From Clostridia bacterium (GTDB lineage: Bacteria; Bacillota; Clostridia; TANB77; UBA1234), in NCBI GenBank assembly GCA_017522765.1, contig JAFWYG010000005.1, positions 571,048-635,047 on the forward strand: a DNA stretch of 64,000 nt. The letters run 5' to 3'. Each line of letters begins with the position of its first letter. The stretch's first letter is position 1. The notes under the pieces are model-generated. The model did not search any database. It was given only the letters and a program-made list of their open reading frames with translations, and was not told the DNA's origin. Shown piece after piece: positions 16,399 to 50,900 of this stretch. The position numbers were made by a program, and so were the translations under genes.

Positions 16399-16417
16399 CT
16401 ACATTCCTCTTTTCGTA

Positions 16418-27985: not shown

Positions 27986-28480
27986 ATGTTTAACAAGAAA
28001 ATGCTTTTAACACTTACTCTAGTGCTAAGTTTAATGAGTTTTTCTTTTGTATTTGCTGCTAATGGAAATGGAGCAGTTGCCAATACAACTGGTGGTACAA
28101 CAACCAGAACCACTTCAACAGATACAAAAAACTCTATGTCAAACGCAGTAGATAACGTTGGAAATACTGCAGGCAATATGGTAAGTGATGCTGCTACAGG
28201 TATTGGTGGTGTTATAAACGGTGCTGGAAGTGCTGTAAATAGCGTTGGGAATGCCGTTACTAGAATGGGTCAAGATTTAGACAATGGTATGTCTGGAGGT
28301 AATGATTCAAGAACTGGTACTGACTCTAGAACTTATGATGCTACTAGAACTGCTACAACAGATAACGGAGAAACCACTACTATGTGGACTTGGGTTATCG
28401 TGATAGTTGCTGCAGTGGCGATATTTGGATTGATTGGATATTATGGTATGTCTGGCGATTCGAAACGTGATAACTATTAA
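27986..28480 (+). CDS. Secreted Gly/Thr/Asn-rich low-complexity protein with a C-terminal TM anchor
   Basis: RBS AGGAGG before MFNKKM. Signal peptide, low-complexity repeats, and C-terminal WTWVIVIVAAVAIFGLIGYY. About 43% GC. Confidence 0.5.
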   Translation: MFNKKMLLTLTLVLSLMSFSFVFAANGNGAVANTTGGTTTRTTSTDTKNSMSNAVDNVGNTAGNMVSDAATGIGGVINGAGSAVNSVGNAVTRMGQDLDNGMSGGNDSRTGTDSRTYDATRTATTDNGETTTMWTWVIVIVAAVAIFGLIGYYGMSGDSKRDNY

Positions 28481-28500
28481 TCGCGTATTTTAGTTTTCTA

Positions 28501-28585
28501 TAGCAATAACCCTTTATCGTCGCCGTGCTGTACTCGGAACTAAAGTTCCTGCGAGCGCACTTCTCGGATAAAGGGATTATTGCTT
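28501..28585. repeat. Copy 1 of an ~80-bp hairpin element with a conserved 48-nt GC-rich core; an inverted copy lies at 41316-41393
   Basis: Terminal inverted repeats caataaccctttatc / gataaagggattattg flank the core gtcgccgtgctgtactcggaactaaagttcctgcgagcgcacttctc. Confidence 0.6.
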
Positions 28586-28660
28586 TACATACTAATGAAC
28601 TATATTTCTGATTAATATGAAAAGAGTGGTCTCGCCAGACCACTCTTTTGCATCTTTTTG

Positions 28661-29836
28661 TTAGTTCTGGATTTGGTTCCAGATTGTGCCTACCATTTGT
28701 GTTAGTTCGCAGTATTGTTCCTCTATACTTTGAAGGAGTGCGATTTGCACTCTGGCGCGCTCTAAATTTTTAGTTTCGCGATTGTACATCCTGCCATTTT
28801 CATCAGGAACCAAATTGCTGAAATACTTATCTCCATCGAGATAGTCTGTCAAAAATCTAAGTGCTTGCTCATACGTAATTATCCATGCTGCATCAACCAA
28901 CATATCCACTTCACGCTGAGTAATTACTTCTTTCATTGTGGTCAAAAGACCTTTTACCAAATATGCGAATTTTTGACTATCGAAATGAACTTTTTCTGCT
29001 TCAACAGATTCTTCACTTTCAGTGTTGCATGCATATCTTGCAGCATCGCCTAAATCGTAAAGAACTGTGCCTGGCATAGTGGTATCCAAATCGATGATTG
29101 TTTTTTCCAGACCAGTATATGTGTCAAATAATACATTGTTGAGCTTGGTATCGTTGTGCGATACACGCTTTGGAATTTTTCCTCTTTCCAAAGGATGAGT
29201 AATCGCATCTGCGCGATAGCTTCTCAACACCAAAAACGTGATCTCTTCCATGCATGTTTTGGAACGTTTATATTCATCATCAGCAAGGATGCCTTCAAAT
29301 GTTTTGAAACGTGCCGGCGTGTTGTGAAAATCTGGAATTGTTTCTACAATTTGCTCAAATTTTTCTTTTGGTAAGTCCGAAAGTTGGAGTGAAAACTTAC
29401 CAATCATTCTTCCAAGCGCCAAAAAATCTGCCTCAGATTCTGGTGTGTTCTTTGTTCTTGATTCAATGTAATCACAAACAGTCCAATACTTTTGAGTTTG
29501 AGCGTCAAAATAAACTGTCGGTGATTCGCAGGTCAACTCCCCAATAACCGGATGGAAATACAGGGTTGTTTCACCTTTGTTACGAATGTGTTCAGTAATA
29601 ATTTGTGTGTTGTTCATCATAGCGACAAAATTTTTGAAAACGTGCGTGTTGATTGCCCGAAAAATAAAGGCTTTAAAACCCGCACCCTCAAAAGAAATTG
29701 CCACCTTATATGTCTTGTTGATTCTGCCGTTGTCGATTGGTTCAATAGACATTATCTTGCCTGCCAATCCTTCAAAATGTTCCTGAACCCTCCGTATTTC
29801 CTGGAGTTGTTCTTGAGATATTCCCTTAATTACCAT
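28661..29836 (-). CDS. Phosphotransferase-family kinase (APH/NahK-like)
   Basis: HNDTKLNNVLFD catalytic-loop-like motif and IDLDTTMPG (DFG-like). About 42% GC. Confidence 0.55.
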   Translation of the reverse strand: MVIKGISQEQLQEIRRVQEHFEGLAGKIMSIEPIDNGRINKTYKVAISFEGAGFKAFIFRAINTHVFKNFVAMMNNTQIITEHIRNKGETTLYFHPVIGELTCESPTVYFDAQTQKYWTVCDYIESRTKNTPESEADFLALGRMIGKFSLQLSDLPKEKFEQIVETIPDFHNTPARFKTFEGILADDEYKRSKTCMEEITFLVLRSYRADAITHPLERGKIPKRVSHNDTKLNNVLFDTYTGLEKTIIDLDTTMPGTVLYDLGDAARYACNTESEESVEAEKVHFDSQKFAYLVKGLLTTMKEVITQREVDMLVDAAWIITYEQALRFLTDYLDGDKYFSNLVPDENGRMYNRETKNLERARVQIALLQSIEEQYCELTQMVGTIWNQIQN

Positions 29837-30021
29837 GAGATTATCCTCCTATGTGTGATTTTCCTAATATGTCTTTTGTACTTTCAAGCGAATTCTACCA
29901 CTTTGATTTTTAAAATCAACTCTTGATTTTTCTAAAAAGATGCTTTATAAGTCCTTTATTACCTAATATTGCAGTGAAAACTATTCTATGCTATAATTAG
30001 CTACGTTAGTTAGGAGGATTT

Positions 30022-30489
30022 ATGGCTAAAAATAATGATGATAAAAGAATTATCGCCACTAATAGCAAAGCCTTCCATGATTACTTTATAGATTCTAGAA
30101 TGGAATGCGGTATCGCACTCGCTGGTACTGAAGTTAAGTCTATTAGAGATGGCAAAGTGAATATGAAAGATAGTTATGCCACAATTAAAGATGGTGAACT
30201 TTTTATAAATGATCTACACATTAGTCCCTATGAAAAAGGAAACATTTTTAATAAGGACCCTATGAGAAAAAGAAAACTACTTGTGCACAAACAAGAAATT
30301 TTAAAACTTGTAGGAATGGTAAAACAAAAAGGTGTTGCGCTTATTCCGCTTTCAATGTATTGGGATAAGAATCACGTAAAGGTTGAACTTGGTGTGGCTC
30401 GTGGTAAAAAGTTATATGACAAACGTCAAGACATCGCCAAGAAAGATGCCGAAAGACGAATTGCACAACACATGAATGAGCGTGGATAA
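30022..30489 (+). CDS. smpB: SsrA-binding protein
   Basis: Typical SmpB sequence ([13 protein letters not shown]...[17 protein letters not shown]...LLVHKQEI). Followed by the terminator aaaagcttgtaacgaaaagttacaagctttt. Confidence 0.95.
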
Positions 30490-30537
30490 AATTTAGAAAA
30501 AGAAAAGCTTGTAACGAAAAGTTACAAGCTTTTTATT

Positions 30538-30990
30538 TTATATATTCATTTCTTCAAACGGTGGAAATTGTTTTTCATCAATTAATTTAGTTAGGGCACT
30601 TACTTTTTGAAGTGCGTCTTCTTTTTGATTTTCTGTTATCAATCCCGCTGCAAGTGCCTCATCCAACTCTTCTACATCAACAACTTCGTATATACCATCT
30701 TCATGAATTATTACATCTACTAATAAATCTATCAATGTTATTGAATCTTCATCTTTAATGTGCTCGATGATATCGCAATACCAGTATAATAAGTTGTTGT
30801 TGTGATCGTAGAATTTGCTTATTTTCCAGCCTTTATCTAGCATAGTGTATGACACACCTCTCCCCACATCTGTGCGTGGTTTTATCGGAAGCCATTTTGT
30901 CACTAATAATTTTTCATCTTGATAAACAATCTCATCAGCAGAGATATCTATTATTTCATTTGGAATGTATCTTTTTCTATATATTTTCAT
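30538..30990 (-). CDS. DUF402/FomD-like protein, hypothetical
   Basis: C-terminal LIDLLVDVIIHEDGIYEVVDVEELDEA pattern typical of DUF402. Confidence 0.4.
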   Translation of the reverse strand: MKIYRKRYIPNEIIDISADEIVYQDEKLLVTKWLPIKPRTDVGRGVSYTMLDKGWKISKFYDHNNNLLYWYCDIIEHIKDEDSITLIDLLVDVIIHEDGIYEVVDVEELDEALAAGLITENQKEDALQKVSALTKLIDEKQFPPFEEMNI

Positions 30991-31067
30991 ACGAATTCCT
31001 CTTCTCTTTAGTTAGTTTCTTTATATTTTAATATTTGATATATGATATTGCAATAGGCTTTTTAAAA

Positions 31068-31150
31068 CAGGGACGCCCCTTGTTATAAAAAATTTAATAA
31101 TAAGGACTGTCCCCGTTGTCAAAATTTTTACAACAAGGGGCGTCCCTCTG
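31068..31150. repeat. Copy B (three units) of the AACAAGG-RSY-GTCCCC palindromic repeat family
   Basis: gggacgccccttgtt ... aaggactgtccccgttg ... aacaaggggcgtccc. The outer units are perfect complements. Confidence 0.6.
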
Positions 31151-31204
31151 TAAAAAAAAGAGACAGTTGCATTAAAGCAACTGCCTCTAAAAAGAAATCG
31201 TTAT

Positions 31205-32797
31205 TTATTTTTCTTCTTTTTTGTCTTTAATAATTTTTTTAGGTTCTTCGTTTGAAACGTTATTTACTAGAAGTCCTTTTGCAGGTTCAGTAATACTTCC
31301 TACTAGACCACTAATTTCTTCGTTGAATGATTTGCCATTTAAAGCTTTGTTTTCAACGTCTAATTTTTTCATTAATTCAGGAACATTTGCTAGTGTGTCT
31401 AATAACACATTACCTGTTCCGCCACCTTGTGGTCCACCATTGATATTAACGAACTCAGCGTTCTTACCAATGTCAGCCATGATTTGTGCTGTCTTTGTAG
31501 CAATTTCTACTTTAGCATTCATTTCAATCTTCAAACGTTCAATTTCGAAGTTAACTTTTTCATTAGATGCACGGGCGTCAGCAAGAGCTTTCTCACCTTC
31601 AGCCATAGCAAGTAATTTAACTCTTTCAGCTTCAGCTTCAGCCAAACCTTTTTGTTTGATGATTTCAGCTTCAACTAAACCTTTTTGTTTTACAACGTCA
31701 GCTTCAGCAACACCGTTCATCTTAGTAACTTCGGCTGATGCTTGACCTTCTTTTTTAGCTTTTTCTGCTTCAGCATCTGCAGTAATTTTGATAGCAGTAG
31801 CTTCACGTTCAGCAACTTCTACTAAGTTGTCTGCGTTAATGTTATTAACGTTTGCTTGTGCTTCAGCTTCGATCATTGCTTTTTCTTTAGCAGCGTTTGC
31901 TTCAGTTAATAATACTTCTTTACGTTTTAATGCAGCTAAGTTAGCTTGTTCTTGTCTAACAACTTCTACATGACCTTCTTCTTCAGCGATATCACGCATA
32001 CGAATTGTTGTTTGAAGTTGTCCGGCAATCATAGCGTCAGCATTAGCTTTATCTGTTTCTGCCTTATATTCAGCTTTTTTCAAGTTGTTGTCTCTTTGTT
32101 TTTCTGCAATAGCAAGTGCAGAATCTAATTCTGATTGAGAAGCGATTTGCTCAGATTCAGCTTTTTGTTTACGAACTTCTTGTTCAACAACAGCTTTTTT
32201 CTTAGCAGCTTCACGATGTTTATCTTGCATATCTAATGCAGCGATGTCATCATAGTATCCATTCTTATCTGAAATATCTTGGATGTTTAGTGATACAAGT
32301 TCCATACCCATGTTAATCATTTCGTCATTAACTGTATTCTTAACTTTTTGAGCGAACTCAACTTTATCTCTAAGAACGGCTTCTGGTGTCATGGAAGCAA
32401 CGATGTCACGAACCGCACCAGTAAGTGTTAATTTAACGTCTTGGATAATACCTTCTTGACCTCTTTCTTTAAATGACACAATCGCTTTTTTCAAGTTTTC
32501 AATATTTGATGTATCTGGTCTGATTTGGGCTGTCCAGTCTGTGATGATTGGAACAGATGTTACTGTACGAATTTCGTCTTTGTCAGCTCGTACTGTTAAC
32601 ATACACAAATCAAAATATGTAGCTTTTCTGAAAATAGGAATTACAAAACTACCTCCAGAAACAACTATCTTTGGTTTCTTTCCACCTGTAATAATTAACG
32701 CTTTGTCAATGTCGGCAACACGATAAATCATACATAGGAAAATAATAAATGCTAGTACTGCACCACCAATGATGCAAGCTAATGTCATAATATCCAT
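31205..32797 (-). CDS. Flotillin-like SPFH/band-7 protein
   Basis: N-terminal TM, SPFH domain and a long A/E/K-rich coiled coil (FloT/YuaG-like). Confidence 0.85.
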   Translation of the reverse strand: MDIMTLACIIGGAVLAFIIFLCMIYRVADIDKALIITGGKKPKIVVSGGSFVIPIFRKATYFDLCMLTVRADKDEIRTVTSVPIITDWTAQIRPDTSNIENLKKAIVSFKERGQEGIIQDVKLTLTGAVRDIVASMTPEAVLRDKVEFAQKVKNTVNDEMINMGMELVSLNIQDISDKNGYYDDIAALDMQDKHREAAKKKAVVEQEVRKQKAESEQIASQSELDSALAIAEKQRDNNLKKAEYKAETDKANADAMIAGQLQTTIRMRDIAEEEGHVEVVRQEQANLAALKRKEVLLTEANAAKEKAMIEAEAQANVNNINADNLVEVAEREATAIKITADAEAEKAKKEGQASAEVTKMNGVAEADVVKQKGLVEAEIIKQKGLAEAEAERVKLLAMAEGEKALADARASNEKVNFEIERLKIEMNAKVEIATKTAQIMADIGKNAEFVNINGGPQGGGTGNVLLDTLANVPELMKKLDVENKALNGKSFNEEISGLVGSITEPAKGLLVNNVSNEEPKKIIKDKKEEK

Positions 32798-33132
32798 AAC
32801 GATTTCCTCCTTTGTTTATGTGATATATTTTAAAAATTAAATTTCCAATAATTTCTAACTACAATGATATTATACGCCTCTAATTTTTAACCGTCAACAC
32901 ATTTTTGCTCGCAAACCCTTGATACAAGCGGATTTGAGCTGTGCAAAACTTGATTTACTACTTACGGAAATAAAGGGTTTGCGGACTCAAAAATTCAAAA
33001 AAAATTTTTTTATTTTATTTTTTTGAATTTTTACCGTTTTTTAGACTTTTTTCGCGCAAAAAAATCCCGCTAAACGCTTATTCCCTAAGGAATTGCTGCA
33101 ATTTAGCAGGATAGATTTTGTGTGAATTTTTT

Positions 33133-33220
33133 GTAACAAGGAGTGTCCCCAACTCGCGAAATTTTTAATTAGGGGACGCTCCTTGTTATCAAAATTTTAA
33201 CAACAAGGACTGTCCCTAGT
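33133..33220. repeat. Copy C (three units) of the AACAAGG-RSY-GTCCCC palindromic repeat family
   Basis: aacaaggagtgtcccc ... ggggacgctccttgtt ... aacaaggactgtccc. Confidence 0.6.
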
Positions 33221-33800
33221 CGCGAAAATCGCGCATTGAGTAGCCTAGTTTTTTTAGTTCATTATAGATTTTGTTTATAGGTAACCCTACCATTGATTTG
33301 TAGTCTCCAATTAGTTCTGTTATAAATAAGGCTGCACATTCGTCTGCAACATATCCAGCACAGTCATATATGTTTGGTTGATTATCTATATACCAATTAA
33401 TCTCATCATCAGATAATTCTTGAAGTTTTACTTTCACGTTATCTGTGAAACTTACCGTCTTATTTTGATATAAGTCTATTATTGTTACACCAGTAATAAA
33501 GTCATTTCCTTTACCTGATAGTTCGCTCATAAAGTTAAATGCTTCTTCTCTATCTTTTGGTTTTTCAAATCTTTTATTGTTCATGTGTCCAATCGTATCT
33601 GCAGCAAGTACTATACCCTCTTTGCATCTCTTTGCTACATCTTCAGCTTTTTCTTTAGAAAGCTCTAACACATACTCTTCTGGATTTGTGTATTCTATAT
33701 TTTCATCGCAATCACTTGGTATTGCTTCACATACAAAACCAGACATCTCCAATAATTGTTTTCTCCATTTTGATCCTGAAGCAAGTATTAATTTAGCCAT
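33216..33800 (-). CDS. maf: Maf-like nucleotide pyrophosphatase
   Basis: LILASGSKWRKQLL N-terminus and the Maf family pattern. Confidence 0.85.
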   Translation of the reverse strand: MAKLILASGSKWRKQLLEMSGFVCEAIPSDCDENIEYTNPEEYVLELSKEKAEDVAKRCKEGIVLAADTIGHMNNKRFEKPKDREEAFNFMSELSGKGNDFITGVTIIDLYQNKTVSFTDNVKVKLQELSDDEINWYIDNQPNIYDCAGYVADECAALFITELIGDYKSMVGLPINKIYNELKKLGYSMRDFRD

Positions 33801-33830
33801 TTAAATCCCCCATTTCTTGATGCAATTATA

Positions 33831-34864
33831 CTATTTAGTATTATAAATCTCAACACCTTGATAATAGTACTTTATTATTTCTTCATACGTAGCTCCAGTC
33901 TTTGCCATGGCATTTGCTCCTTCTTGACTCATTCCGACGCCATGGCCATAACCAATAGTTTTAAATGTCACATCGCCCGATTCGCTATATACTATTTCAA
34001 AATCAGTCGAGCGAAGACCTAATAGACTGCGTAGTGATGTTGCTTTTACCTCATGAATTCCCGCCTTTAAAGTATCTATTCTATTACTCCCTGTATATCC
34101 TAAGACTTCTAACTTTTCACCACTATAGTTAGGATACTTACTTTTTAATTTTGAAGTTAAATCTGCTTGTGAAATAGTTAGTGCATCTTCATAAAGATAA
34201 TCCTCTTTAGCCGGAACACTCTTTAAATATGGAATTTCTTCGTTTCCCCAAACGTATTTTACATCTTCAGTTGCACGTCCACTGTGCGCATGAAAGTATG
34301 CTGCAACTATATCTCCGCTATAAGTAATATATTCCCCAGAAGTTAAATTCACTGCTTTACAAAGTTTTTCCCATTTTGCATTTTCTTCATTGTCATCCCA
34401 AGAAGAAAATGCATACTCTTTTGTTTTAAAGCACTGGCAACAATTTATATCATCACACATGTCCGCACCATTATGTGCTGACGGATTATATTTTAGCTTA
34501 TGCATGGTGTATGATCTAGCAACTAACGCTTGTGCCTTAAGCGCTTCAAGCTCATAAGTAGACGGTACTTCGCCTATCAATACTCCCACCAAATAATCTT
34601 CAAAAGGCATCTCTACAATTTTATTTTCACCGGTTAATAGTAATTTGATATTTTCTTTTTCTTCTATATTTATAGTATCTAAATTATTAGTATCCTTACT
34701 TTCTTCAGGCAACTTGTCTCCACCAATTAATTCTTTTAGCCCTTCTAATACATCTATGTTTTTCACAAATTCACCAGCATCTACAATTAACATATCTCTT
34801 AAAAACAAGCTAGGTGTAGCAAAGCAAATAATCATAAATATAAAAAAGAACACAATAAATCTCA
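33831..34864 (-). CDS. spoIID: SpoIID/LytB domain protein
   Basis: C-terminal GYGHGVGMSQEGANAMAKTG motif. The start was moved to the internal ATG (MRFIVFFF) after a GGAGG RBS, because the longer ORF would overlap rplT. Confidence 0.75.
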
Positions 34865-34983
34865 TAACTCGTCCAACCTCCATTGATAAATTGTATGAGG
34901 ACAAGTTAAATTTAGAACAACAGATTTGTCCTATCTTGGACAAAAAAAAGAGACATCCGAAGATGTCTCGTAAGTTTTTAAAC

Positions 34984-35331
34984 TTATTTAGTAGCTGCAG
35001 CAACAACTTGTGCGAAACCAGCTGGATCATTAACAGCCATTTCAGCAAGCATTTTTCTGTTGATGTTGATGTTAGCTTTTTTCATTCCATTGATTAATGT
35101 GCTGTAGTTAACACCATTTGCTCTAGCACCTGCATTGATTCTTGAAATCCAAAGTTTTCTGAAATCTCTTTTCTTTAACTTTCTTCCAACATATGCATAT
35201 TGTAAAGATTTCATTACAGCTTGTTTAGCCATTCTGAATCTTGTGCTTTTTGCGCCATAATAACCTTTAGCCATTTTTAAAACTTTTTTATGTTTTTTTC
35301 TAGTAATAACCGCTGTTTTTACTCTTGCCAT
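34984..35331 (-). CDS. rplT: 50S ribosomal protein L20
   Basis: [16 protein letters not shown]... is canonical L20. Confidence 0.95.
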
Positions 35332-35365
35332 TTTTCATTAACCTCCTATATATATTCTCTTTAAA

Positions 35366-35563
35366 TTAAGCGTATGGTAGCATTTTCTTAACGTTTGCTT
35401 CCATTGTCTTGTCAACTGTTGTTGGTCTTCTAAGTCTTGCTTTTCTCTTAGCTGTTTTTGCATTTAATAAATGTCTTCTGTTCATTCTGTTTCTTTTAAT
35501 TTTTCCTGTACCTGTTAAGCTAACTCTTTTTGCAGTAGCTCTGTGTGTTTTCATTTTAGGCAT
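35366..35563 (-). CDS. rpmI: 50S ribosomal protein L35
   Basis: MPKMKTHRATAKRV... is canonical L35. Confidence 0.95.
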   Translation of the reverse strand: MPKMKTHRATAKRVSLTGTGKIKRNRMNRRHLLNAKTAKRKARLRRPTTVDKTMEANVKKMLPYA

Positions 35564-35600
35564 GATTTTCTTACTCCCTTCAAATATATTAATAATTAAA

Positions 35601-36125
35601 TTATTGTTGGTTTTTTGGATTAATCATAAGTATCATACTTCTGCCTTCAAGTTTTGGAGCTTTATCTACTGAACCTACATCACTTAGTGCTTCAGCAAAT
35701 TTAGTCAAAACGCTTGCGCCAAAAGCTGTGTTATTAACTTCTCTACCCTTAAACTTAATCGTTGCTTTAACTTTGTCACCAGACTCTAAGAATTTTCTAG
35801 CATTTTTTGCTTTGAATTCAAAGTCGTGTGTGTCAATTGTTGATGACAAACGAATTTCTTTAACTTCAACAATTTTTTGTTTCTTTTTAGATTCTTTTTC
35901 TTTTCTAGCTTGCTCATATTTGTATTTACCATAGTTCATGATTTTACAAACTACAGGATTTGCATTAGAAGCAACCTCTACTAAATCTAATTCCTTTTCT
36001 TCAGCTATTTTCAAAGCTTCAGCAATTGGTAACACTCCAAGTTGCTCTCCGTTTTCATCAATAACCTTAACTTCTTTAGCTACGATTTCCTCGTTTATAG
36101 AAAGTTCTTGTTTGATACAAATCAA
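35601..36125 (-). CDS. infC: Translation initiation factor IF-3 (non-ATG, ATT-type start)
   Basis: Typical IF-3 sequence. GGGAGG RBS followed by TTG ATT. The start codon is probably AUU, as is usual for infC. Confidence 0.9.
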   Translation of the reverse strand: MICIKQELSINEEIVAKEVKVIDENGEQLGVLPIAEALKIAEEKELDLVEVASNANPVVCKIMNYGKYKYEQARKEKESKKKQKIVEVKEIRLSSTIDTHDFEFKAKNARKFLESGDKVKATIKFKGREVNNTAFGASVLTKFAEALSDVGSVDKAPKLEGRSMILMINPKNQQ

Positions 36126-36170
36126 CCTCCCTTAAATTTATAAAGCCCTATGCTCATATTGGGCATAAAA

Positions 36171-36198
36171 AAAGACTTAAGATCAATCTTAAGTCATA
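36171..36198 (-). terminator. Leader terminator/attenuator upstream of infC (consistent with an L20-responsive leader)
   Basis: Perfect 10-bp stem gacttaagat/atcttaagtc, followed on the minus strand by TTTTTTT, about 45 nt before the infC RBS. Confidence 0.5.
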
Positions 36199-36376
36199 CC
36201 ACACAAAAATAACTCGTAAAATAAATACTAATTATTAACCGTTCATATCTCTTTATGACGGTGAGAAGTGGTTGACTTCTTCTTGACTGGTCCTATTATA
36301 ACCCCCTATTTATTTAATGTCAAGCATAAAGTTGGAGATTTTTGGGACTTTTTAGTATTCTTTTGCCATATTTTGG

Positions 36377-37015
36377 TTATTTAATTTTAACTCCTATTAG
36401 ATATAATAAGTCACCCGCCTGATACTCGCCTATTTCGGCTCCACGGATGTCTTCTATAGATATGTTTAGTCCACTAATTATTGCATCAGATAAGTCGATT
36501 CCTTTTAATGATGTCTTGAAGAAATTCGCACTCGTTAAATCAGCTTCTTTAAACACGATGTTTTTTAGCTTATTTTCTTGAAAGTTTGCACTTTTAAGTC
36601 CTGTATTATTAAATAGTATATTTTCTATACTTGCCAAAGATAAATTTGCGTAATTCATATTTGTCTCTGCAAAACAAACATTATACAATCTGCTATCTAC
36701 GAAGTTGCATCCTGTAAGTTTGCAATTATTAAATTCACATCTTACAAAACTAGAATTTTCAAATGAAGTATTTGAAAAGTTGCAATTAACAAATTCTACG
36801 TCTGTAAAGCTACTCTTTTCTAGATTTCCACCAACTATAGAAACATTTTTCAAAACAGCTTTTTCTATAGATACTTCATTAACTCTAGGGTTTTCTATAA
36901 AGCAATTTTCCACCGACACATTTTCAAATTCTGCGTCATCAGTTAATTCTAATGCAAAATTTTCTATCACTTTTAATTTATCAAATAAAACTTTTTGTGG
37001 TTTTAATATATTCAT
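36377..37015 (-). CDS. Pentapeptide-repeat protein (Qnr/MfpA-like)
   Basis: Continuous A(D/N)LxX pentapeptide repeats across the whole protein. Confidence 0.8.
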   Translation of the reverse strand: MNILKPQKVLFDKLKVIENFALELTDDAEFENVSVENCFIENPRVNEVSIEKAVLKNVSIVGGNLEKSSFTDVEFVNCNFSNTSFENSSFVRCEFNNCKLTGCNFVDSRLYNVCFAETNMNYANLSLASIENILFNNTGLKSANFQENKLKNIVFKEADLTSANFFKTSLKGIDLSDAIISGLNISIEDIRGAEIGEYQAGDLLYLIGVKIK

Positions 37016-37281
37016 TATTTAAGCTTCTTCTCCCATACTTTTCTAACCGCTTTTAACGATAACGTAGATAGTTCAAAACCGATTACAGGCACTAAAGAAC
37101 TTAACCACACATTTGTGATTTTACTTATTGAGTATGAATAAATAATAACTACTACATACGTTAAAATTCCGATACAAACTTTTCTAGTACCACTTGTCTC
37201 CCACTTTTTATCTAGTTCTACTCTTGCATTTCTTGCTTTAATTTCTTGAATTTCTTTTTCTAAATTTTCCATATTATTCAC
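37015..37281 (-). CDS. Small membrane protein, hypothetical
   Basis: 88 aa with two TM segments. Sits between the ABC-F gene and the pentapeptide-repeat gene. Confidence 0.4.
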   Translation of the reverse strand: MNNMENLEKEIQEIKARNARVELDKKWETSGTRKVCIGILTYVVVIIYSYSISKITNVWLSSLVPVIGFELSTLSLKAVRKVWEKKLK

Positions 37282-37287
37282 TCCAGT

Positions 37288-38775
37288 TTATTTTTCTAAT
37301 ATAACAATTTTCGTTGCTACTTTTTCTATAAACACATCATCATGTTCTACAAATATAATTGTCGGCGCGTATTTTAATATCACTTCTTCAATCTGAACTT
37401 TTGTAACTATATCTATATAATTAAGTGGTTCATCCCATACATATATATTCGCAGATTCGCTTATACTTTTGGCAATCAAAACTTTCTTTTTTTGTCCTTC
37501 ACTAAAATCACTAATTTCTTTTTCAAAATCTATAGTTGTGAATCCCATCTTCGAAAGCATAGCTTTAAATACACTTTCATTTAAATTATTCTTTTCTGAA
37601 AAGTTTTTCAAAGTTCCTTTTAAGTCTGATGTGCTTTGAGAAACATACGAAATTTTCAAATCATTCGCAACTTTAAATTCGCCTTCAAAATCAATTTTTT
37701 CTCCCATTATTAATTTTAATATACTCGATTTCCCCACGCCATTTTTTCCAACTATAGCTAATCTATCTCCTTGTTTTACTTCAAAAGAAATTGGTGCGAA
37801 TATACTTTTCTCATCGTATTTTATTTGTAATTTATCAGCATATACAATCGGACTTTTCTTTGTTTCTATCGGAATCATTTTCAAATCATCTATTCTATCA
37901 ATGTTATTTAACAATTTAGATTTTTCATCAATTGCTTTTTCAATTCTTTGTTCCATAACCTTCGAACGTTTCATCATCTTAGCCGCTTTATGTCCAACAT
38001 ATCCTTTATCTACAAAACTACCAGAATTACTATCTGGAGCATGCTTTGACTTTTCAACTGCATTTGACCATTTTTCTGTATTTCTCGCTGCAACTTCTAG
38101 TCTGATAATATCTTTTTTTAGTTTTTCATTTTGTGTTATTTCGAAGTTATCTTGTCTATCTTTATTTTCTTGCCAAGAACTAAAATTCCCTTTTTGAATT
38201 GTTATATCAGTATTATTAATTGAAATAATATGATCAACAACTTTATCTAAGAAAACTCTATCATGAGAAACCAAAATAAACCCTTTTTTCTTATTCAGAT
38301 ATTCAACCAAATTGTTTCTGGTTTCTAAATCCAAATGATTCGTAGGTTCATCTATTAATAAAAAGTTATTTCTTTTCAAGAATAAACTAACAAGTAAAAT
38401 TTTAATTTGTTCTCCACCACTTAACGTGTTAAAACTTCTATATAATACTTCAGAATTTGTTTTTAGCAAATTTAATTCTTTAAAAATTTCCCAATCTTCT
38501 GCTTCAGGAGCAATTGAATTTACTATTTCTATAGTCATTTGATTATCATCTTTTACTTCGAAAGGAAAATAATCAAATGAAACATTTTTAGATATATTAC
38601 CTTTGTATTCATACTCACCTAAAAGGAGTTTCAAAAATGTTGTTTTTCCTTTCCCATTACGACCAATAAGTCCTAACTTCCAGTCTGTGTCTATATTTAA
38701 AGAAACATCTTCAAACACATTTTGCACGCTACCATCGTAACCAAATGTAAGATTTGTAACACTTATTAAAGACAT
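37288..38775 (-). CDS. ABC-F family ATPase (two ABC domains, no TM; ARE/ribosome-protection type)
   Basis: Two Walker A motifs (GRNGKGKTT and GKNGVGKSS) and a signature LSGGE, with an interdomain linker. RBS AGGAGG before the internal ATG (MSLISV). Confidence 0.85.
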   Translation of the reverse strand: MSLISVTNLTFGYDGSVQNVFEDVSLNIDTDWKLGLIGRNGKGKTTFLKLLLGEYEYKGNISKNVSFDYFPFEVKDDNQMTIEIVNSIAPEAEDWEIFKELNLLKTNSEVLYRSFNTLSGGEQIKILLVSLFLKRNNFLLIDEPTNHLDLETRNNLVEYLNKKKGFILVSHDRVFLDKVVDHIISINNTDITIQKGNFSSWQENKDRQDNFEITQNEKLKKDIIRLEVAARNTEKWSNAVEKSKHAPDSNSGSFVDKGYVGHKAAKMMKRSKVMEQRIEKAIDEKSKLLNNIDRIDDLKMIPIETKKSPIVYADKLQIKYDEKSIFAPISFEVKQGDRLAIVGKNGVGKSSILKLIMGEKIDFEGEFKVANDLKISYVSQSTSDLKGTLKNFSEKNNLNESVFKAMLSKMGFTTIDFEKEISDFSEGQKKKVLIAKSISESANIYVWDEPLNYIDIVTKVQIEEVILKYAPTIIFVEHDDVFIEKVATKIVILEK

Positions 38776-38809
38776 TGCTCCTCCTTTCATTAGTAAGTAT
38801 CCTTACCAT

Positions 38810-39379
38810 TTATATATTTAAACTTTTTAACTTTTCTGTAAGTCTTCTATAAATAGGTTTCATTTTTTCTTCTGTTGTATAATTTTCAACTTCATCAAAA
38901 TCTATCCATTTTACACCGCTGTTTTCATCTTCTTTTATTCTTAAAACCTCTTCTTCATCAGCTTCGAATAAGAATTCAACATCGAAATGAAGATGTGAAT
39001 TTACAATCTTACCTCTCTTAATATGGTTATCTACGGTAACAATATTTACACCATATATATCATCTTGCAAAAGTTTAATATTAGTTAATCCTGTTTCTTC
39101 TTCAATTTCTTTTTTTACAACGTGAAGTAAATCTTCATCTCCATCAGCATGTCCACCTACCCATGCCCAAGAGTCATAAATGTTGTGGTAAATCATAAGT
39201 AGTTTTGTTCTGTCTTTGTTTGTTATCCAAGCTGATGTTGTCATATGTGCGATTTTATTGTTTCTTGTTAATACATCTTCGTTGCTTGCAATAAAATCCA
39301 AAATAACAGCCTTGTCTTCGCTCTCCTTATCATCATAAGGAACATACCCAGAAATTTTTTCGTACAAATACTTATTCAT
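38810..39379 (-). CDS. NUDIX hydrolase
   Basis: GGHADGDEDLLHVVKKEIEEETGL Nudix box. Confidence 0.8.
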   Translation of the reverse strand: MNKYLYEKISGYVPYDDKESEDKAVILDFIASNEDVLTRNNKIAHMTTSAWITNKDRTKLLMIYHNIYDSWAWVGGHADGDEDLLHVVKKEIEEETGLTNIKLLQDDIYGVNIVTVDNHIKRGKIVNSHLHFDVEFLFEADEEEVLRIKEDENSGVKWIDFDEVENYTTEEKMKPIYRRLTEKLKSLNI

Positions 39380-39414
39380 AATAAACCTCCATTAAAAATT
39401 TAACTAATATTAAA

Positions 39415-39804
39415 TTAATCTTCTTTTTCTGTTAGTCTTTTCTTTTGCCAACTTTTTTCTTCGCAATTAGGGCATCTCATATATCTTGTTCTTCCCATAT
39501 GTGGAGCCCAAAGCACACTTGAATATGTTGGGACATGTCTATGTCCACATTTTCCACATTCATAAAAGCCTGTTTCTGCTTCAATTTTGATTCCAAAAGC
39601 ACAAGCAACAATAAGTTCTGCAACGGCTATTGTTATCATTGCGGTTTGCCATACTATGCTTTGAACCGCATACGCTGCTGCAAAAATTAACACAAGAAAA
39701 GAAAATAAAGCGATGTATACAATTACAAATTCATACATCAAAAACTTCTTGTTGGTTTCACGTTGTTCATTAATCTTTGCTTTTTTTCCAAACAAATCGA
39801 TCAT
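39415..39804 (-). CDS. Membrane protein with a C-terminal zinc-ribbon (CxxC...CxxC)
   Basis: Two TM segments, then YECGKCGHRH...MRCPNCEEKS. RBS GGAG before the internal ATG (MIDLFG). Confidence 0.5.
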   Translation of the reverse strand: MIDLFGKKAKINEQRETNKKFLMYEFVIVYIALFSFLVLIFAAAYAVQSIVWQTAMITIAVAELIVACAFGIKIEAETGFYECGKCGHRHVPTYSSVLWAPHMGRTRYMRCPNCEEKSWQKKRLTEKED

Positions 39805-39997
39805 AAAATCAACTCCTTTATAGCTAGAATCGCTTTCGCGCAATTCCGCCAAATTACGATAAAATTATACCATATAGAATGTAGAAAATAAACCTTCGTA
39901 CCAACAATTCTTTCGTTGATACGACCTTTCTTTGACTTTTCAAGATTTCCTTGGTATAATCCACCCGTACTAAATATTTATAAGGAGGAACGCTCTA

Positions 39998-41101
39998 GTG
40001 AAAAATATTCATCGGATTGTATTAACCGGCGGACCGTGCGCTGGCAAAACTACTGCTTTCGCGCGGATTGAAACAGAACTCACAAATTTGGGCTATAAGG
40101 TTTTCGTTATGCCAGAAACTTTCACCGAGATGTACGGTGGCGGAATAAAGCTTCTCGAATACCCTAATGTAGAATTTCAAGACATGCTTTTTAGATTGCA
40201 GCGTGCTAAAGAACACATTTATGATGAAGCTGCTGAAAAGTGTGAAACTGAAAATGTAGTCATACTGTATGATCGCGGTCTGGTAGACGCTCTCGCATAT
40301 ACCTCTCCCGAAGATACTGAAGAAATCCTTCGTCGCAATAAGGTAACTATCAACACACTTATGAACATGTACGATGCTGTAATCCATATGGTTACTGCAG
40401 CAGATGGCGCAGCGGAAGCCTACATCGCTAACAAAGAAAACAACCCTGCGCGCTATGAATCTGTCGAAGACGCAATTAAGGTAGATCATGCTTTGAAAAA
40501 TGCGTGGACCGGTCATCCTCACCTTCGCATCGTGGATAATAGCACCGACTTTGCAAATAAGATTAATCGCATGATGGCTGAAATTTTTGCCGTTCTTGGC
40601 GAACCTGTGCCGTTGGAAATCGAAAAGAAATTCCTTATCAAAGCACCTGTTCTTGCAAACCTTTCTCAACATATTAATTTCTCTGAGCAGCAAATTATTC
40701 AGACTTATCTTTGTGACAACGGTAACGGCATCGAAAGACGTATTCGTATGCGTGGTACTGAAGGCGACTACACATTCTTCTACACCGAAAAGAAGTTTAT
40801 TCGTCCTGGTGTAAGAGTTGAAACCGAACGTAAGATTTCCGAAAGAGAATACATCAACTATCTGATGCAGACCGATTGTCAAAAACGTCAAATCCGAAAG
40901 ACTCGCTATTGTTTCATTTACAATAACCTGTACTATGAGCTGGACGTCTATCCCTTCTGGGAAGACAAAGCTATCCTCGAAATCGAGCTTTCTTCTGAAG
41001 CTTCGAACTTTGAAATTCCCGACTTCATTAGTCCTATCAAGGATGTTACTGATAACCCTGCATACAGCAATTATATGCTGGCAAGTAAAATCCCTGATTA
41101 A
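39998..41101 (+). CDS. P-loop NTPase (AAA_28/NadR-kinase-like) fused to a CYTH (triphosphate tunnel) domain
   Basis: Walker A GGPCAGKTT. The C-terminal domain has the CYTH hallmarks LEIEKKFLIK (ExExK), RIRMRG and a terminal EIELSSE. 45-53% GC. Own sigma-A-type promoter (TTGACT-17-TATAAT), GTG start after AAGGAGG, and a rho-independent terminator at 41119-41154. Confidence 0.7.
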   Translation: MKNIHRIVLTGGPCAGKTTAFARIETELTNLGYKVFVMPETFTEMYGGGIKLLEYPNVEFQDMLFRLQRAKEHIYDEAAEKCETENVVILYDRGLVDALAYTSPEDTEEILRRNKVTINTLMNMYDAVIHMVTAADGAAEAYIANKENNPARYESVEDAIKVDHALKNAWTGHPHLRIVDNSTDFANKINRMMAEIFAVLGEPVPLEIEKKFLIKAPVLANLSQHINFSEQQIIQTYLCDNGNGIERRIRMRGTEGDYTFFYTEKKFIRPGVRVETERKISEREYINYLMQTDCQKRQIRKTRYCFIYNNLYYELDVYPFWEDKAILEIELSSEASNFEIPDFISPIKDVTDNPAYSNYMLASKIPD

Positions 41102-41315
41102 TCACACAATTCATATCTATGATGCCCGCGCTATTTTAGCGTGGGCATCATTTTTCATTTGACATATCCTTCATCTATATATATAATGTTCGTAATAAAC
41201 AATCAAAAGTAAGGGATAGCCGATAAAAACAAATTAACATCATAATGCTAACGCAAAGTGGACCAAGCAAAGCTTGGTCCTTTGCCGTTTTATAAGACTT
41301 GTATTTTATATTTAC

Positions 41316-41393
41316 AATAAACCTTTATTTGAGAAGTGCGCTCGCAGGAACTTTAGTTCCGAGTACAGCACGGCGATGATAAAGGTTTATTGT
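41316..41393. repeat. Copy 2 (inverted orientation) of the ~80-bp hairpin element seen at 28501-28585
   Basis: caataaacctttat ... core (reverse complement of the copy-1 core, with 1 mismatch) ... ataaaggtttattg. A perfect 14-bp terminal stem with one compensatory pair change relative to copy 1. Confidence 0.6.
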
Positions 41394-41556: not shown

Positions 41557-42792
41557 ATGTGTGAGAAAACAAACACCACGTGGCGTGATCTTGCGCAGAA
41601 TCTTCATGAAGAAGGAACACCTGTAGAAGAAATTTGCAGTAAAGTGTATGAAGAATTTGGCTCGGCATTCAAGGCTAAGGACTCTTCTGCTCGGACTGTA
41701 AAGCGCTTTCTTCGTGAGACTTTTGGTGCCGCAAGCATCGCGCCTCCACCGAAGACTTTTGAGGAACAAGTATCCGAACGTCGCGACAAAATCTTAAGTT
41801 CGGAAGCCGCCAAACAAGACAAAAAGTTGCTTACCAAGATTGCTGTTACCGAAATGATTATTGACTCCATTCGCGATGTTGTTCGCGAACGTCCTTTTAG
41901 AGACATCAAACCCTTCGAGGTAAAAGTCGACCGCAACTATTCTGAAGAGACTATCGTGCTCATGATTTCCGACATTCAAGCGGGCACGTACATTTCTAAA
42001 GAATCCAGCGGTGGTCTTAATGAGTACAACTGGGATATCCTTGAGAAACAGTTTGTACAACTCTATAAAGGACTTGAAGAAATCGTCACTCGTCACAAAC
42101 AAGTCGCTCCCATCTCTTCTTTGCATGTGCACCTTATTGGCGACATCGTCGAGGGTTACGATATCTTCAAAGGACAAACCAGACAGATTGACCGCGAAAT
42201 TACCGAACAGGCAATTGGTGTTAAGGATTTGCTCTGCGAATTCCTTATCAAGACGCTCTACCTTTTCGATAAAGTTCACGTGGTAGCTGTTCCTGGTAAC
42301 CATGGTCGTATTGGTTCTAAGGGTGAAAACCTGCACTACGTAAGCTGGGACTACATCGTATACAAGTGGATGGAATCCGAGCTGAAACAGTATGACAGAA
42401 TCACCTGGCAAATCACAAAATCTTGGTGGCAGATGGACACAATCTATGGCTTCAACTTCTTGATGTTCCATGGTGATGACATTCGTTCTTGGCAAGGTAT
42501 TCCCTATTACGGTATCGACCGTGCAGCTAAGAACTATACTGAGCTTTTGCAGCTCATCGGACTCAACTACAACTACCTTGAGCTCGGTCATTTCCACGTT
42601 CCATCTGAACTTCCTGGTGTCACCACCGAAAAGTTTATCAACGGTTGTTGGCCTGGCGGCAGCTTATATTCCATGAAAGGACTTGTAACTGCAAACTATC
42701 CTGTACAAAAACTTTTTGCCGTTCATCCAACGCAAGGTGTAACCTATCGTTATCCTTTGCGTCTCACACTTCCGAAGAAAGGCAAGAAATAA
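41557..42792 (+). CDS. Calcineurin-like metallophosphoesterase with an N-terminal extension of about 130 aa
   Basis: Motifs LMISDIQAG, HLIGDIVEG (GDxxxRG-like), AVPGNHG (GNH), FHGDD and GHFH. About 43% GC. RBS GGAGG and the terminator aagactagagttgaaaagctctagtcttttt. Confidence 0.7.
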   Translation: MCEKTNTTWRDLAQNLHEEGTPVEEICSKVYEEFGSAFKAKDSSARTVKRFLRETFGAASIAPPPKTFEEQVSERRDKILSSEAAKQDKKLLTKIAVTEMIIDSIRDVVRERPFRDIKPFEVKVDRNYSEETIVLMISDIQAGTYISKESSGGLNEYNWDILEKQFVQLYKGLEEIVTRHKQVAPISSLHVHLIGDIVEGYDIFKGQTRQIDREITEQAIGVKDLLCEFLIKTLYLFDKVHVVAVPGNHGRIGSKGENLHYVSWDYIVYKWMESELKQYDRITWQITKSWWQMDTIYGFNFLMFHGDDIRSWQGIPYYGIDRAAKNYTELLQLIGLNYNYLELGHFHVPSELPGVTTEKFINGCWPGGSLYSMKGLVTANYPVQKLFAVHPTQGVTYRYPLRLTLPKKGKK

Positions 42793-46755: not shown

Positions 46756-46862
46756 TCATTATATCACGACTTTTAAATTATGTAAAGTGTCCCATTTTGG
46801 GACGGACTCTTCGTGGGACAAGTTGTCCCATAATAGGTCCGTCCCAAAATGGGACAAAAACA
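46756..46862 (-). promoter_or_regulatory. Promoter-operator element R1: nested palindromes (GTCCCA-N4-TGGGAC, GGACGGAC, GGGACAA-C-TTGTCCC) immediately upstream of a -35 TTACAT / -10 TATAAT promoter
   Basis: The 19-nt perfect inverted repeat gtcccattttgggacggac / gtccgtcccaaaatgggac flanks the 15-nt palindrome gggacaacttgtccc. About 90% identical to R2 at 47814-47922. Confidence 0.6.
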
Positions 46863-47951: not shown

Positions 47952-50900
47952 TTACTCTTTAAACATATTTACGAATTCTTCTTCATTTATTTCGCCATGT
48001 TCTAACAAATATTCAACTACATTAGACATCTTATCTTTGTTATCTCTAATTAATTCTTTAACCTCTTCAAAACATTTTTTCAAGATTCTATTTTCTTCAT
48101 CATATATTGTTTTTTCCAATGCTGTATTATTTGAAGATACTTGTGCTAAACCTAAATCGGACATGCCGTATCTTGTAATCATGTTTCTAGCAACTCTTGT
48201 AGCATGCTCTAAATCAGAGGTTCCACCACTCTTATAGAATCCTAAGAACACTTCTTCAGCAGCAATACCTGCTAGCGATCTCTTTATCGAATTCATTAAT
48301 TCTTCTTTCGAATGAACGTAAGCCGCATTCGAATTGTCATACTCAACATATCCTAAAGCTCCCCAACCTTCTGCTTTACACGTAATCTTTTTGATACCAC
48401 ATCTCTTAACTAACAAGTATCCAACAGTTGCGTGACCAACTTCGTGAATCGCAGTCTTTCTCATTTCTTCTGGAGTAATCTTACTTGGATCAGCCATAGA
48501 TGCTCCGTCAAGCATTGAATTTGTAATCTCTTGTATTGTTGGAATATCTTCTGCTGTTATCGTTGTTACATCAGTTGGTGATGCAGTACCACTCTTAGAT
48601 TTTTCTGCAAAATTCTTAGAATGATTAACCATTGTCTTTGAAAATACTTTATCTGCAAATCTACCATTGCCAATGTTATCAACCTTGTAGAAATACTTCA
48701 TAACTTCTTTTACTTTTTCTATCGCACCATCGCTTAAAGTTAATCCACTCTTTTCAACTTTTCTTCTAAATATTTCTGTAAGTTCAGAATCAGAATAATC
48801 TTCAAAGTTAAATGTGTAACCAATTCTAGATGCAATACCAGGATTTATATCCAAGAAGTCTCTCATCTCTTTTTTGTATCCAGCAAAAATTACTACAAAC
48901 TCACCTTTATGATCTTCCATTGCTTTGATTAAAGTTGCAACAGCTTCTGCACCATAATCATGTCCCGGACCACCATGACCATTTGCAAGTGAGTATGCTT
49001 CATCTACGAATAATACGCCTCCCATTGCACGTTCTACAACTTCATTTGTTTTAATTGCAGTTTGTCCAACATATGCAGCAACTAAATCTTTTCTTTCAAC
49101 TTCTACAAGTTTATTCTCATGGATAACTCCCATATCAAATAACATCTTTGCAATGATTCTTGCTACAGTTGTTTTACCTGTACCTGGATTTCCAGTGAAT
49201 ATCATATGCAGATTTGAATCAGGAAGATTTATATTTTGTTTTTCCGCCTCTTTAATAAACGATACATATGTGCCTAAAGAAATTATTTCTTTCTTCAAAC
49301 TTTCCATACCAACAATCTTAGCTAAAGCTTCTTCAACATTTGCACTAGTACTAATTCCGCTTTCAGTAAGCTCTTCAATAGTTGGAATGTCTGCTTCAGT
49401 TATAAGTTCTATATTTTCTCTATCGGCCAAAGCATGTTTCATCAAAGTTTTTTGAATTACTTTATCAACGAAACGACCATTACCAAAGTTCTTTCTCTTA
49501 ACGAAATAATCACAAACTCTTTTTAATGGAACATCAATATCGTCAGCAAATTTAAAACCTGCTTTCTTCATCTTCATATAGAACATTTCCATTAATTCTT
49601 TTACGTTATAATCTTCGAAGTTAAATGTATAACCAATTCTAGATGCAATACCAGGATTTACATCGAGGAATGTTTTCATCTCATCTCTGTAACCTGCAAA
49701 GATTACTATCAAACTTTCTTTATGATCTTCCATCGCTTTAATCAATGTTGCAATAGCTTCAGCACCAAGTTTATCAGATGCAAGTGTGTATGCTTCGTCA
49801 ATAAATAGTACACCGCCCATTGCATGTTCTATTATCTCATTAGTTTTAATAGCAGTTTCTCCACCATGAGTACCAATTAAATCTTTTCTTTCAACTTCAA
49901 CAAGTTTATTCTCATGGATAACTTCCATATCAAATAGCATCTTCGAAATAATTCTAGCGATTGTAGTTTTACCAGTACCCGGATTACCTGTGAATATCAT
50001 ATGCATATTTGTGCTAGGAATGTTTAGTTTCTTTTGTTCTGCTTTCTTAACAAATTTAGCATACTTACCAAAAGTCCTAATTTCATTCTTCACATTTTCC
50101 ATACCGATAATCTTTTCAAGCATCTCTTCAGCAGTTTCATGCTTACCATTTTTAGACTCGTTTTGATTTAATTGTTCAATGCTTGGAATGTCTTTCTCAG
50201 TAATCATCTTCAAGTCTTCAGAATCACCCAAAGCATGATTCATCAAAGTTTCTTGAATTACTTTATCTACAAAACGACCATTACCAAAACTCTTTCTCTT
50301 CGAATAATAGCTAAAGATTCTCTTAAGTGGAACGTAAACATCATCACCACATTCAAAACCATTTTTTCTAATCTTCACACGGAAGATTTCGATCAATTCT
50401 TCAACTGTATAATCAGGGAAATCAAAAGTATAACCTATTCTAGAAGCTATACCAGGATTGATATCCAAGAAGTCTTTCATCTCTTTTTGATATCCTGCAA
50501 AAATAACAACTAGCTTATCTTTGTGATCTTCCATTGCTTTAATTAAAGTTGCAATAGCTTCACTACCAAAGTCGTTTTTACTTTCACTTGCTAAAGTGTA
50601 TGCTTCATCAACGAATAACACACCACCCATAGCTTTATCTATAACTTCAGTTGTTTTTGTTGCAGTTTGTCCAATATATTCTGCAACTAAATCTTTTCTC
50701 TCAACTTCAACAAGTTTATTTTCTTTTACAACACCAAGATCAAAAAGCATCTTCGCCATAATCCTTGCAACAGTTGTCTTACCAGTACCAGGATTACCTG
50801 TGAATATCATATGCATATTTGAAGAAGCTACTTTCAAACCATTTGCTTTGGCTTGCAATTGGAAGAACATATACTTTTCAAACTCTTTAACTTTTTCTTT

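Follow-up and report, generated by a model that had tools for sequence, protein, structure and literature searches.

Here we describe a hairpin element of about 80–90 nucleotides (nt) that occurs as two inverted copies in a 64,000-nt stretch of the genome of an uncultured Clostridia bacterium (assembly GCA_017522765.1, contig JAFWYG010000005.1, positions 571,048 to 635,047; hereafter the window). Our tentative interpretation, to which we give a probability of roughly 45%, is that the element is a lineage-specific repeat resembling REPINs and miniature inverted-repeat transposable elements (MITEs), which would affect transcripts only passively, as an RNA hairpin. We favour a repeat because homology is confined to the hairpin, the family has diverged into subtypes, copies have been duplicated locally, sites are patchily occupied, and copies lodge behind terminators and in both orientations. 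The repeat itself, its fold, distribution, pattern of conservation and context, and the collinear order of the genes are observed; the route of mobilization and any effect at the RNA level are inferred.

The inverted pair that had been proposed from inspection of the sequence (hereafter the original prediction) is real. A repeat search of the window returned a single long inverted pair, 28504–28574 and 41322–41392 (71 nt ungapped, 94% complementary), and reading and alignment that allow a 1-nt indel extend the homology to 28503–28583 (copy 1, 81 nt) and 41314–41393 (copy 2, 80 nt); the ends lie no more than 2 nt from those predicted. Each strand of the window contains the 36-mer GTGCTGTACTCGGAACTAAAGTTCCTGCGAGCGCAC exactly once, whereas none of 100 dinucleotide shuffles contains it. 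The shared core had been described as near-identical with one mismatch; the mismatch is the first base of the 47-nt core then proposed, leaving 46 identical nucleotides (28520–28565 is the reverse complement of 41331–41376). As also predicted, the copies form GC-rich islets, at 49% and 41% GC, with 56% in the core, against 33% across the window. We designate as E+ the strand of the element that reads ACAAUAAACCUUUAUUUGAGAAGUGCGCUCGCAGGAACUUUAGUUCCGAGUACAGCACGGCGAUGAUAAAGGUUUAUUGU and carries the G·U pairs and the purine-rich loop described below; in copy 1 this is the minus strand, in copy 2 the plus strand. A covariance model (R1) built from three close copies scores copy 1 at 109 bits on the minus strand and 45 bits on the plus strand, and copy 2 at 101.6 bits on the plus strand.

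Beyond the hairpin, the flanks of the two copies are unrelated in both relative orientations (alignment against shuffles, P = 0.2–0.6). Homology thus appears to stop exactly at the hairpin foot, which indicates, at the level of sequence, a mobile unit no larger than the hairpin. The non-significant flank alignments also rule out a core that had been inverted inside fixed flanks. Every Logan contig that reaches a copy stops exactly 30 nt (k − 1) into the shared core, which implies only that each genome has at least two copies.

In both copies, each strand folds far better than shuffled sequences (z-scores of −5.0 to −6.5; none of 200 shuffles was as good), and E+ is more stable than the opposite strand by 3–5 kcal/mol. 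Folding of both strands into long, nearly perfect hairpins is typical of DNA repeats. From foot to tip, the fold comprises an AT-rich outer stem of about 15–17 bp, a six-layer symmetric internal loop, a GUGC/GCAC stem and a 4-bp stem (GCUC/GAGU) that starts with a G·U pair and is offset by 3-nt bulges on opposite strands, above which sits the tip GGAAC-UUUA-GUUCC. The 46-nt core, read along E+, spans part of the internal loop and all that lies above it. The terminal closing stem of the original prediction, CAATAAMCCTTTAT/ATAAAGGKTTATTG, is present in both copies, with 15–16 bp in copy 2 and 16 bp plus one bulged base in copy 1; copy 2 lacks the bulge.

The fold is kept while its sequence changes. 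All seven substitutions between the window copies preserve pairing status, and two pairs are altered on both sides: columns 9/74 of the alignment (C–G versus A–U), which correspond to the compensatory C-to-A and G-to-T change already noticed in the original prediction, and columns 1/81 at the end of the stem (G–C versus A–U). The remaining differences include one C–G pair that becomes U·G and a C·C mismatch that becomes U·U. Relative to the more divergent member L014-E (introduced below), matched changes from C–G to U–A occur in the tip, the inner stem and the outer stem, and the pair at the centre of the loop changes from G–C to A–U or U–A. Across six family members, RNAalifold keeps 16 pairs, four of which have changed on both sides. 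The statistical support for covariation is thin at three to six sequences: for the three close copies, 53 of 500 shuffles score at least as high as the real alignment. G·U pairs are found on E+ only (G28·U52 in all three E copies of the alignment, and a U·G pair in copy 2) and correspond to A·C mismatches on the other strand; E+ folds better than its complement in five of the six members.

The pattern of the internal loop, 5′-GANRA facing 5′-GRN′GA, is common to the six members, with one of them (X1) deviating at the fourth layer. Counting outward from the inner GUGY stem, layer 1 is A·G in 6/6 members, layer 2 is A·G or G·A, layer 3 is a covarying Watson–Crick pair (G–C, A–U or U–A), layer 4 is A·G in 5/6 and G·G in X1, layer 5 is G·A in 6/6, and layer 6 is a pyrimidine mismatch or C–G, beyond which the AT-rich stem begins. 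In copy 2, the 5′ strand of the loop, U GAGAA (41330–41335, plus strand), faces GGCGAU (41372–41377, plus strand), giving A·G, A·G, G–C, A·G, G·A and U·U from the inner stem outward; in copy 1, C GAGAA (28561–28566, minus strand) faces GGCGAC (28519–28524, minus strand). X1 can also adopt an alternative, fully Watson–Crick register in place of the G·A loop. It is the fold that is retained: the stem sequence drifts by matched changes, and the loop and the adjacent GUGY stem are conserved. Conservation of the fold and of a non-Watson–Crick loop despite turnover of the stems suggests recognition by shape, whether by a mobilizing enzyme or by an RNA-binding protein.

To place the two copies in their lineage, we ran R1 and an nhmmer profile built from the six members over 1.32 Mb of related loci. 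These include a second strain of the window's species (L002, GCA_054275015.1), two loci from sister species (L013, CAYMVI01, in which SpoIID is 91% identical at the amino acid (aa) level, and L078, a Logan contig), the more distant L014 (CAZEVD01; SpoIID 74% identical) and L074, and many loci at 50–63%. The original prediction had held that the element would be a duplication relic if only the two window copies existed; related copies are present in other species. L013 carries a member at 15038–15117 (106 bits), beside a decayed tandem copy (14957–15016) whose 3′ half has rotted. In L078 a member occupies positions 1–60. L014 carries a divergent member, L014-E, at 15631–15722 (28 bits, E = 4e-4); its position with respect to the stop codon of the gene and to a conserved flank, TCGNNTATTTT, is the same. 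The same intergenic region of L014 holds two paralogues, X1 and X2, whose basal halves align with the element and whose apical half is different; their nhmmer E values (1e-17 to 1e-20) are circular, as the profile includes X1 and X2. These 87-nt hairpins (15054–15140, minus strand, and 15393–15479, plus strand) are 90% alike, mutually inverted and about 250 nt apart, and between them lie a TATAAT box and a possible open reading frame (ORF) of 15 codons. At least three diverged subtypes with a common architecture can therefore be told apart: the window type, L014-E and L014-X1/X2. The element has undergone local duplication, giving the tandem copy in L013 and the inverted pair in L014. L074, from another species at about 74% distance, has a 90-nt hairpin of another kind (683–772) at the orthologous position, which loosely recalls the family (GAUGAGGUGU...UUCACACCUCAUC); because neither the covariance model nor nhmmer detects it, we do not count it as a member.

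The position of copy 1, which we call site 1, is shared among relatives. In the window, L013, L078 and L014, which represent three species, the element is found shortly after the stop codon of one gene of 164–180 aa, always with E+ antisense to that gene. In the window the gene (27986–28480, plus strand) encodes a 164-aa protein with a signal peptide, a low-complexity region rich in G, T, N and S, a C-terminal membrane anchor and no Pfam family; because of the low complexity, a homology search with the protein gave one match only. The adjoining flank is also conserved, as TCGCGTATTTT in the window and L013 and as TCGACTATTTT in L014, and represents the 3′ half and T-run of a weak terminator-like hairpin that overlies the stop codon. 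Neighbouring proteins are 64–93% identical across the three species (SpoIID, 74–91%). The ancestral order is membrane-protein gene, element, smpB; in the window's species, a gene of the APH family and a strong bidirectional terminator have been inserted between the membrane-protein gene and smpB. This phosphotransferase gene (28661–29836, minus strand) is missing from L013, L014, L074 and L075, in which the membrane-protein gene adjoins smpB, and looks like an insertion into the same hotspot. Two strains of the window's species, L002 and L005, have no element at site 1, where a 133–139-nt segment bounded by ATTAAT is gone and the terminator loop also differs; since the element is present there in sister species and outgroups, we regard this as a deletion. 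More distant relatives have a plain terminator only. Judged by this distribution, copy 1 is old, and site 1 holds the founding copy, retained in three species.

Copy 2 (site 2) has a different history. Each contig from the window's species that extends to this site (L002, L010–L012 and L079–L082) carries it, and the corresponding intergenic region of the sister species L013, upstream of the 411-aa gene of unknown family that follows copy 2 in the window (41557–42792, plus strand), lacks the element. There, about 125 nt of the window are replaced by 24 unrelated nucleotides; the segment consists of the hairpin with 16 and 29 nt of AT-rich flank, and the rest of the intergenic region is about 95% identical between the two species. 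Copy 2 is therefore young and confined to the window's species, and we take its presence there and absence from L013 to reflect one copying event.

Both copies lie just after terminators, as had been predicted. Copy 1 follows the weak terminator-like hairpin (28465–28486; 28465–28496 with its T-run, plus strand), the 3′ half and T-run of which are conserved in L013 and L014. The strong bidirectional terminator (28620–28649), 36 nt from copy 1, serves both the membrane-protein gene and the convergent APH-family gene. Because copy 1 lies between the weak and the strong terminator, its plus strand is very probably transcribed with the upstream membrane-protein gene. Copy 2 lies about 24 nt downstream of a strong terminator, GCAAAGUGGACCAAGC-AAA-GCUUGGUCCUUUGC with a U-run (41253–41296, plus strand). 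A perfect sigma-70 consensus promoter (41159–41187, plus strand; TTGACA-17-TATAAT, 12/12) is predicted to drive a short conserved transcript that ends at this terminator. The segment 41218–41296 is 100% identical in L013 and L002 while neighbouring bases vary, and the region 41159–41296, whose terminator lies about 70 nt past the promoter, is a candidate for a small RNA of about 95 nt or for an attenuating leader of the 411-aa gene; an Rfam search of this region gave no meaningful match.

The same context bears on the suggestion that the element is a small-RNA gene with its own expression, which is not supported. A promoter scan of the window, L013 and L014 found no promoter-like site before E+ at site 1, and the sole candidate at site 2 is a 9/12 match that overlaps the first bases of the element. 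The strand predicted to be co-transcribed with the upstream gene is the complement of E+ (E−) at site 1 and E+ at site 2, so that the copies are opposite relative to neighbouring transcription. GC skew is uniform across the window, and the copies are therefore also opposite relative to replication. Nor is the element itself an intrinsic terminator: the foot of its stem is AT-rich, a U-run follows only copy 2 (plus strand), and a terminator scan calls neither copy.

Consistent with a family that is undescribed and restricted to a narrow clade of uncultured gut Clostridia, searches of public collections returned no relatives. Rfam 15 at gathering thresholds gave no match in the whole window; at E ≤ 10 over both copies and the L014 cluster, the best E values over the copies were 0.1–0.4, at less than half the gathering score, and came from generic hairpins and terminators. 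An Rfam search had been proposed at the outset as a check, and it assigns the element to no known RNA family. ARAGORN found no tRNA or tmRNA. The pattern ACTCGGAACNNNNGTTCCTGCGAGC had no match in GTDB representatives, JGI metagenomes or IMG/VR, and a looser pattern that covers both subtypes, TTCCGAGTANNNCACN{1,2}CGAYGATAA, had none in JGI metagenomes. Copy 1 had no blastn match among PLSDB plasmids or INPHARED phages, and two stop-free translations of the element had none in a protein database search.

Several known structures were considered and set aside. Integron attC sites carry R″/R′ core sites of the form RYYYAAC ... GTTRRRY and are arranged in cassette arrays; the arms of the element (CAATAAACC/GGTTTATTG in the window and UCAUCUUUU/AAAAGAUGA in L014) have no GTTRRRY site, and there is no array or integrase. 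By eye against consensus sequences, a K-turn or box C/D motif was rejected because the window type has A·A at 2b·2n and because the register conflicts with the outer stem, and a hammerhead was rejected because the junction is two-way, not three-way, and CUGA is absent. The hairpin ribozyme, bacterial loop E, the RAT antiterminator and ssoA/CS-6 were rejected in the same way.

Among the closest known systems are REPINs, doublets of REP sequences that form hairpins and are mobilized by RAYT Y1 transposases (PMC3116915, PMC3337134, PMC2817692). Like REPINs, the element is a non-coding, extragenic, imperfect hairpin in the range of about 70–110 nt that lies near gene ends, in both orientations and in clusters, and that preserves structure over sequence; its lineage, too, encodes a Y1_Tnp protein flanked by palindromic repeats. 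A second, unrelated family of GTCCC...GGGAC palindromic repeats (for example, TGTCCCATTTTGGGACGGACTCTTCGTGGGACAA) occurs in the window at 31059–31157, 33162–33216 and 46788–46856, and in L078 copies of this GGGAC type (6585–6665 and 7485–7540) flank both sides of a 238-aa Y1_Tnp gene (PF01797; 6766–7482). This arrangement is the hallmark of a RAYT/REP(IN) system, and the lineage therefore possesses machinery that mobilizes hairpins. By contrast, known REP/REPIN systems typically comprise tens to hundreds of copies, with a conserved GTAG/CGTC tag at the hairpin foot (PMC3733652). Our element has two copies in 81 kb, the Y1 gene is flanked by the other repeat, and AT-rich arms surround a GC-rich centre, unlike the GC-rich hairpins of REP sequences. 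No GTAG/CGTC tag is present at the hairpin foot, and no tetranucleotide is common to the flanks of the six copies.

The likeness to MITEs is similarly partial. With terminal inverted arms of 15–17 bp, a length of 80–81 nt and no coding capacity, the element has the form of a MITE. Neisseria Correia (CREE) elements, for example, are bacterial MITEs that are transcribed together with their neighbours and form hairpins in the RNA (PMC2649163). They generate a TA target-site duplication, whereas the hairpin element has none. ERIC, RUP and BOX are further bacterial MITEs of this kind. The element resembles all of these in being small and intergenic, in having terminal inverted repeats and no ORF, and in its differing occupancy between close strains, and it could likewise act on flanking transcripts as an RNase III target, a stabilizer or a terminator. 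It differs from Correia-type MITEs in its very low copy number in the DNA searched, in having no known parent insertion sequence and in termini that are not conserved between subtypes, the opposite of terminal inverted repeats recognized by a transposase. The proposal that the element is a MITE is thus borne out as far as a real repeat family, patchy occupancy between close relatives and terminal arms are concerned, and not as regards target-site duplication, a clean empty site or a cognate transposase.

We propose that the element would spread as DNA through a single-stranded hairpin intermediate, which a trans-acting protein would recognize by its shape and its conserved loop. In read-through transcripts of either orientation, the resulting RNA hairpin of about 30 bp would act passively rather than as a specific regulator, for example as a 3′-end barrier, a target of an RNase III-type enzyme or a back-up terminator.

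Several observations weigh against this interpretation. The source scaffold (ENA ERZ28654271, scaffold_10; the window and 17 kb beyond its ends) holds two copies in 81 kb, and neither R1 nor nhmmer found further copies outside the two sites in the 1.32 Mb of loci from this and related genomes. No copy has direct repeats at the hairpin foot, and filled and empty alleles differ by replacements of 125–139 nt rather than by clean insertions. The termini are completely different between subtypes. Pfam-annotated gene tables covering most of the window list no transposase family, tblastn with the L078 Y1_Tnp protein found no copy in the window, and the only Y1_Tnp gene seen in the clade is flanked by the GGGAC-type repeat and not by the hairpin element. 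Strict tests for a MITE or a REPIN fail on target-site duplication, non-conserved termini and a cognate enzyme, and the copy number is low in the DNA searched. In addition, the role at the RNA level is one that we infer entirely, and an orthologous site has been kept through three speciations, with its hairpin maintained by at least five compensatory changes. Such preservation is unlike a purely selfish, immobile relic and argues for either a function at the level of the host or repeated overwriting from unseen master copies; a host-level role may lie in an RNA hairpin in the 3′ flank of the gene or in a protein-binding loop.

The main alternative, which we consider rather unlikely, is that the element is a selected structured RNA, either a cis element of the 3′ untranslated region of the membrane-protein mRNA or a small RNA from the E+ strand. 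Its double tandem-G·A loop would dock an RNA-binding protein, and copy 2 and the L014 paralogues would be gene duplicates. The orthologous position in three species whose neighbouring proteins are only 64–93% identical fits this proposal, as do the hairpin kept by compensatory changes, the loop pattern of A·G, R·R, Watson–Crick, A·G and G·A in 5/6 members with a covarying centre, the confinement of G·U pairs to one strand that folds better in 5/6 members, the GC-rich islet in a genome of 33% GC, and the very probable transcription of the plus strand of copy 1 with the upstream gene. Motifs of the kind collected in Rfam share the GC-rich islet, stable fold, compensatory changes, tandem-G·A internal loop and conserved neighbourhood in three species; they differ in that the element has no Rfam match, no promoter and no constant transcriptional orientation, and is lost in some strains. 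The favoured strand has no promoter-like site at any locus, save the 9/12 match that overlaps the start of copy 2; at site 1 it is antisense to both neighbours in L013 and L014 and lies behind a terminator in the window, and the co-transcribed strand is opposite at the two sites. The element is moreover dispensable (deleted in L002 and L005), one L013 copy is decaying, the alternative Watson–Crick register of X1 replaces the G·A loop, and the covariation is weak (53/500 shuffles on three close copies). A more novel proposal, which we regard as improbable, is that the tandem sheared G·A pairs around a covarying pair, beside the GUGY/RCAC helix, constitute a new structured-RNA or single-stranded DNA motif that an undiscovered protein recognizes; the element would then be a new class of 3′-flank regulatory RNA tied to the membrane-protein/smpB locus or the recognition hairpin of an undescribed enzyme distinct from RAYT/REP.

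More improbable still is a duplication relic without function or mobility, in which an intergenic hairpin, perhaps an old terminator or palindrome, was copied once by illegitimate recombination and nothing but intrastrand repair or gene conversion within the palindrome keeps its arms complementary. The presence of two copies only in 81 kb, the lack of target-site duplication and of matches in the public collections searched, and the decayed L013 copy, which shows that copies can rot, are all what a relic would predict. Against it stand at least three diverged subtypes with the same architecture and a conserved non-Watson–Crick loop. The element was also duplicated independently in L013, L014 and the window's species, and conversion between the arms would remove mismatched loops, not conserve G·A pairs. 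The original prediction had further suggested that the pair could mediate inversion of the intervening 12.8-kb block, which carries smpB, the flotillin gene and the infC operon. Inverted copies that share a 46-nt identical core would suffice for occasional RecA-dependent exchange, and, like invertons, they are inverted repeats that bound a segment. However, from the deacetylase gene to the 411-aa gene, the source scaffold (L001), strain L002 and L013 (which has no copy 2) show the same order and orientation of genes. None of the genomes compared has the block between the copies, which lie 12.8 kb apart around essential genes, in the other orientation, the Pfam-annotated gene tables for most of the window contain no recombinase or invertase family, and, given the uniform GC skew, flipping the block would set mostly leading-strand genes against replication. 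We therefore give this suggestion almost no weight. In more distant relatives, a segment of about 190 bp bounded by 20-bp inverted repeats (AAAGAGCGTRCTAAAAGAAA) lies in opposite orientations in the membrane-gene/smpB intergenic region of two genomes (L025, 4932–5153, and L026, 12425–12650) and is a candidate invertible switch.

Other features of the region were recorded along the way. A gene for a 495-aa double ABC_tran ATPase (37288–38790, minus strand) is missing from L002, which is otherwise collinear (between 16874 and 17148). At about 55785–59526 (minus strand), a region that resembles a defence island encodes a ThsB_TIR protein beside an AAA_15/AAA_21 ATPase, HicB and several helix-turn-helix proteins, and just past the right end of the window (L087, 129–9946) lie an OLD-TOPRIM/AAA_15 protein with a UvrD-like helicase, a Gabija-like pair, and a type I restriction HsdR. 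The coding sequence of a 1940-aa multi-AAA/Peptidase_M41 protein contains at least seven 18-nt periodic repeats (six-codon units; 52875–53036). Two sets of three tandem paralogous units, of about 980 bp (15187–17395) and about 800 bp (48742–50873) with 60–78% identity, are presumably tandemly duplicated genes.

If the element is indeed a REPIN- or MITE-like repeat, it would be one more lineage-specific palindromic repeat among the many known, and its chief practical effect would be that short-read assemblies break at its copies. It would matter more if its loop proved to be a protein-binding RNA motif. The comparison of relatives also reveals repeated rearrangement, by duplication, deletion and gene insertion, at one intergenic hotspot beside smpB in uncultured gut Clostridia.

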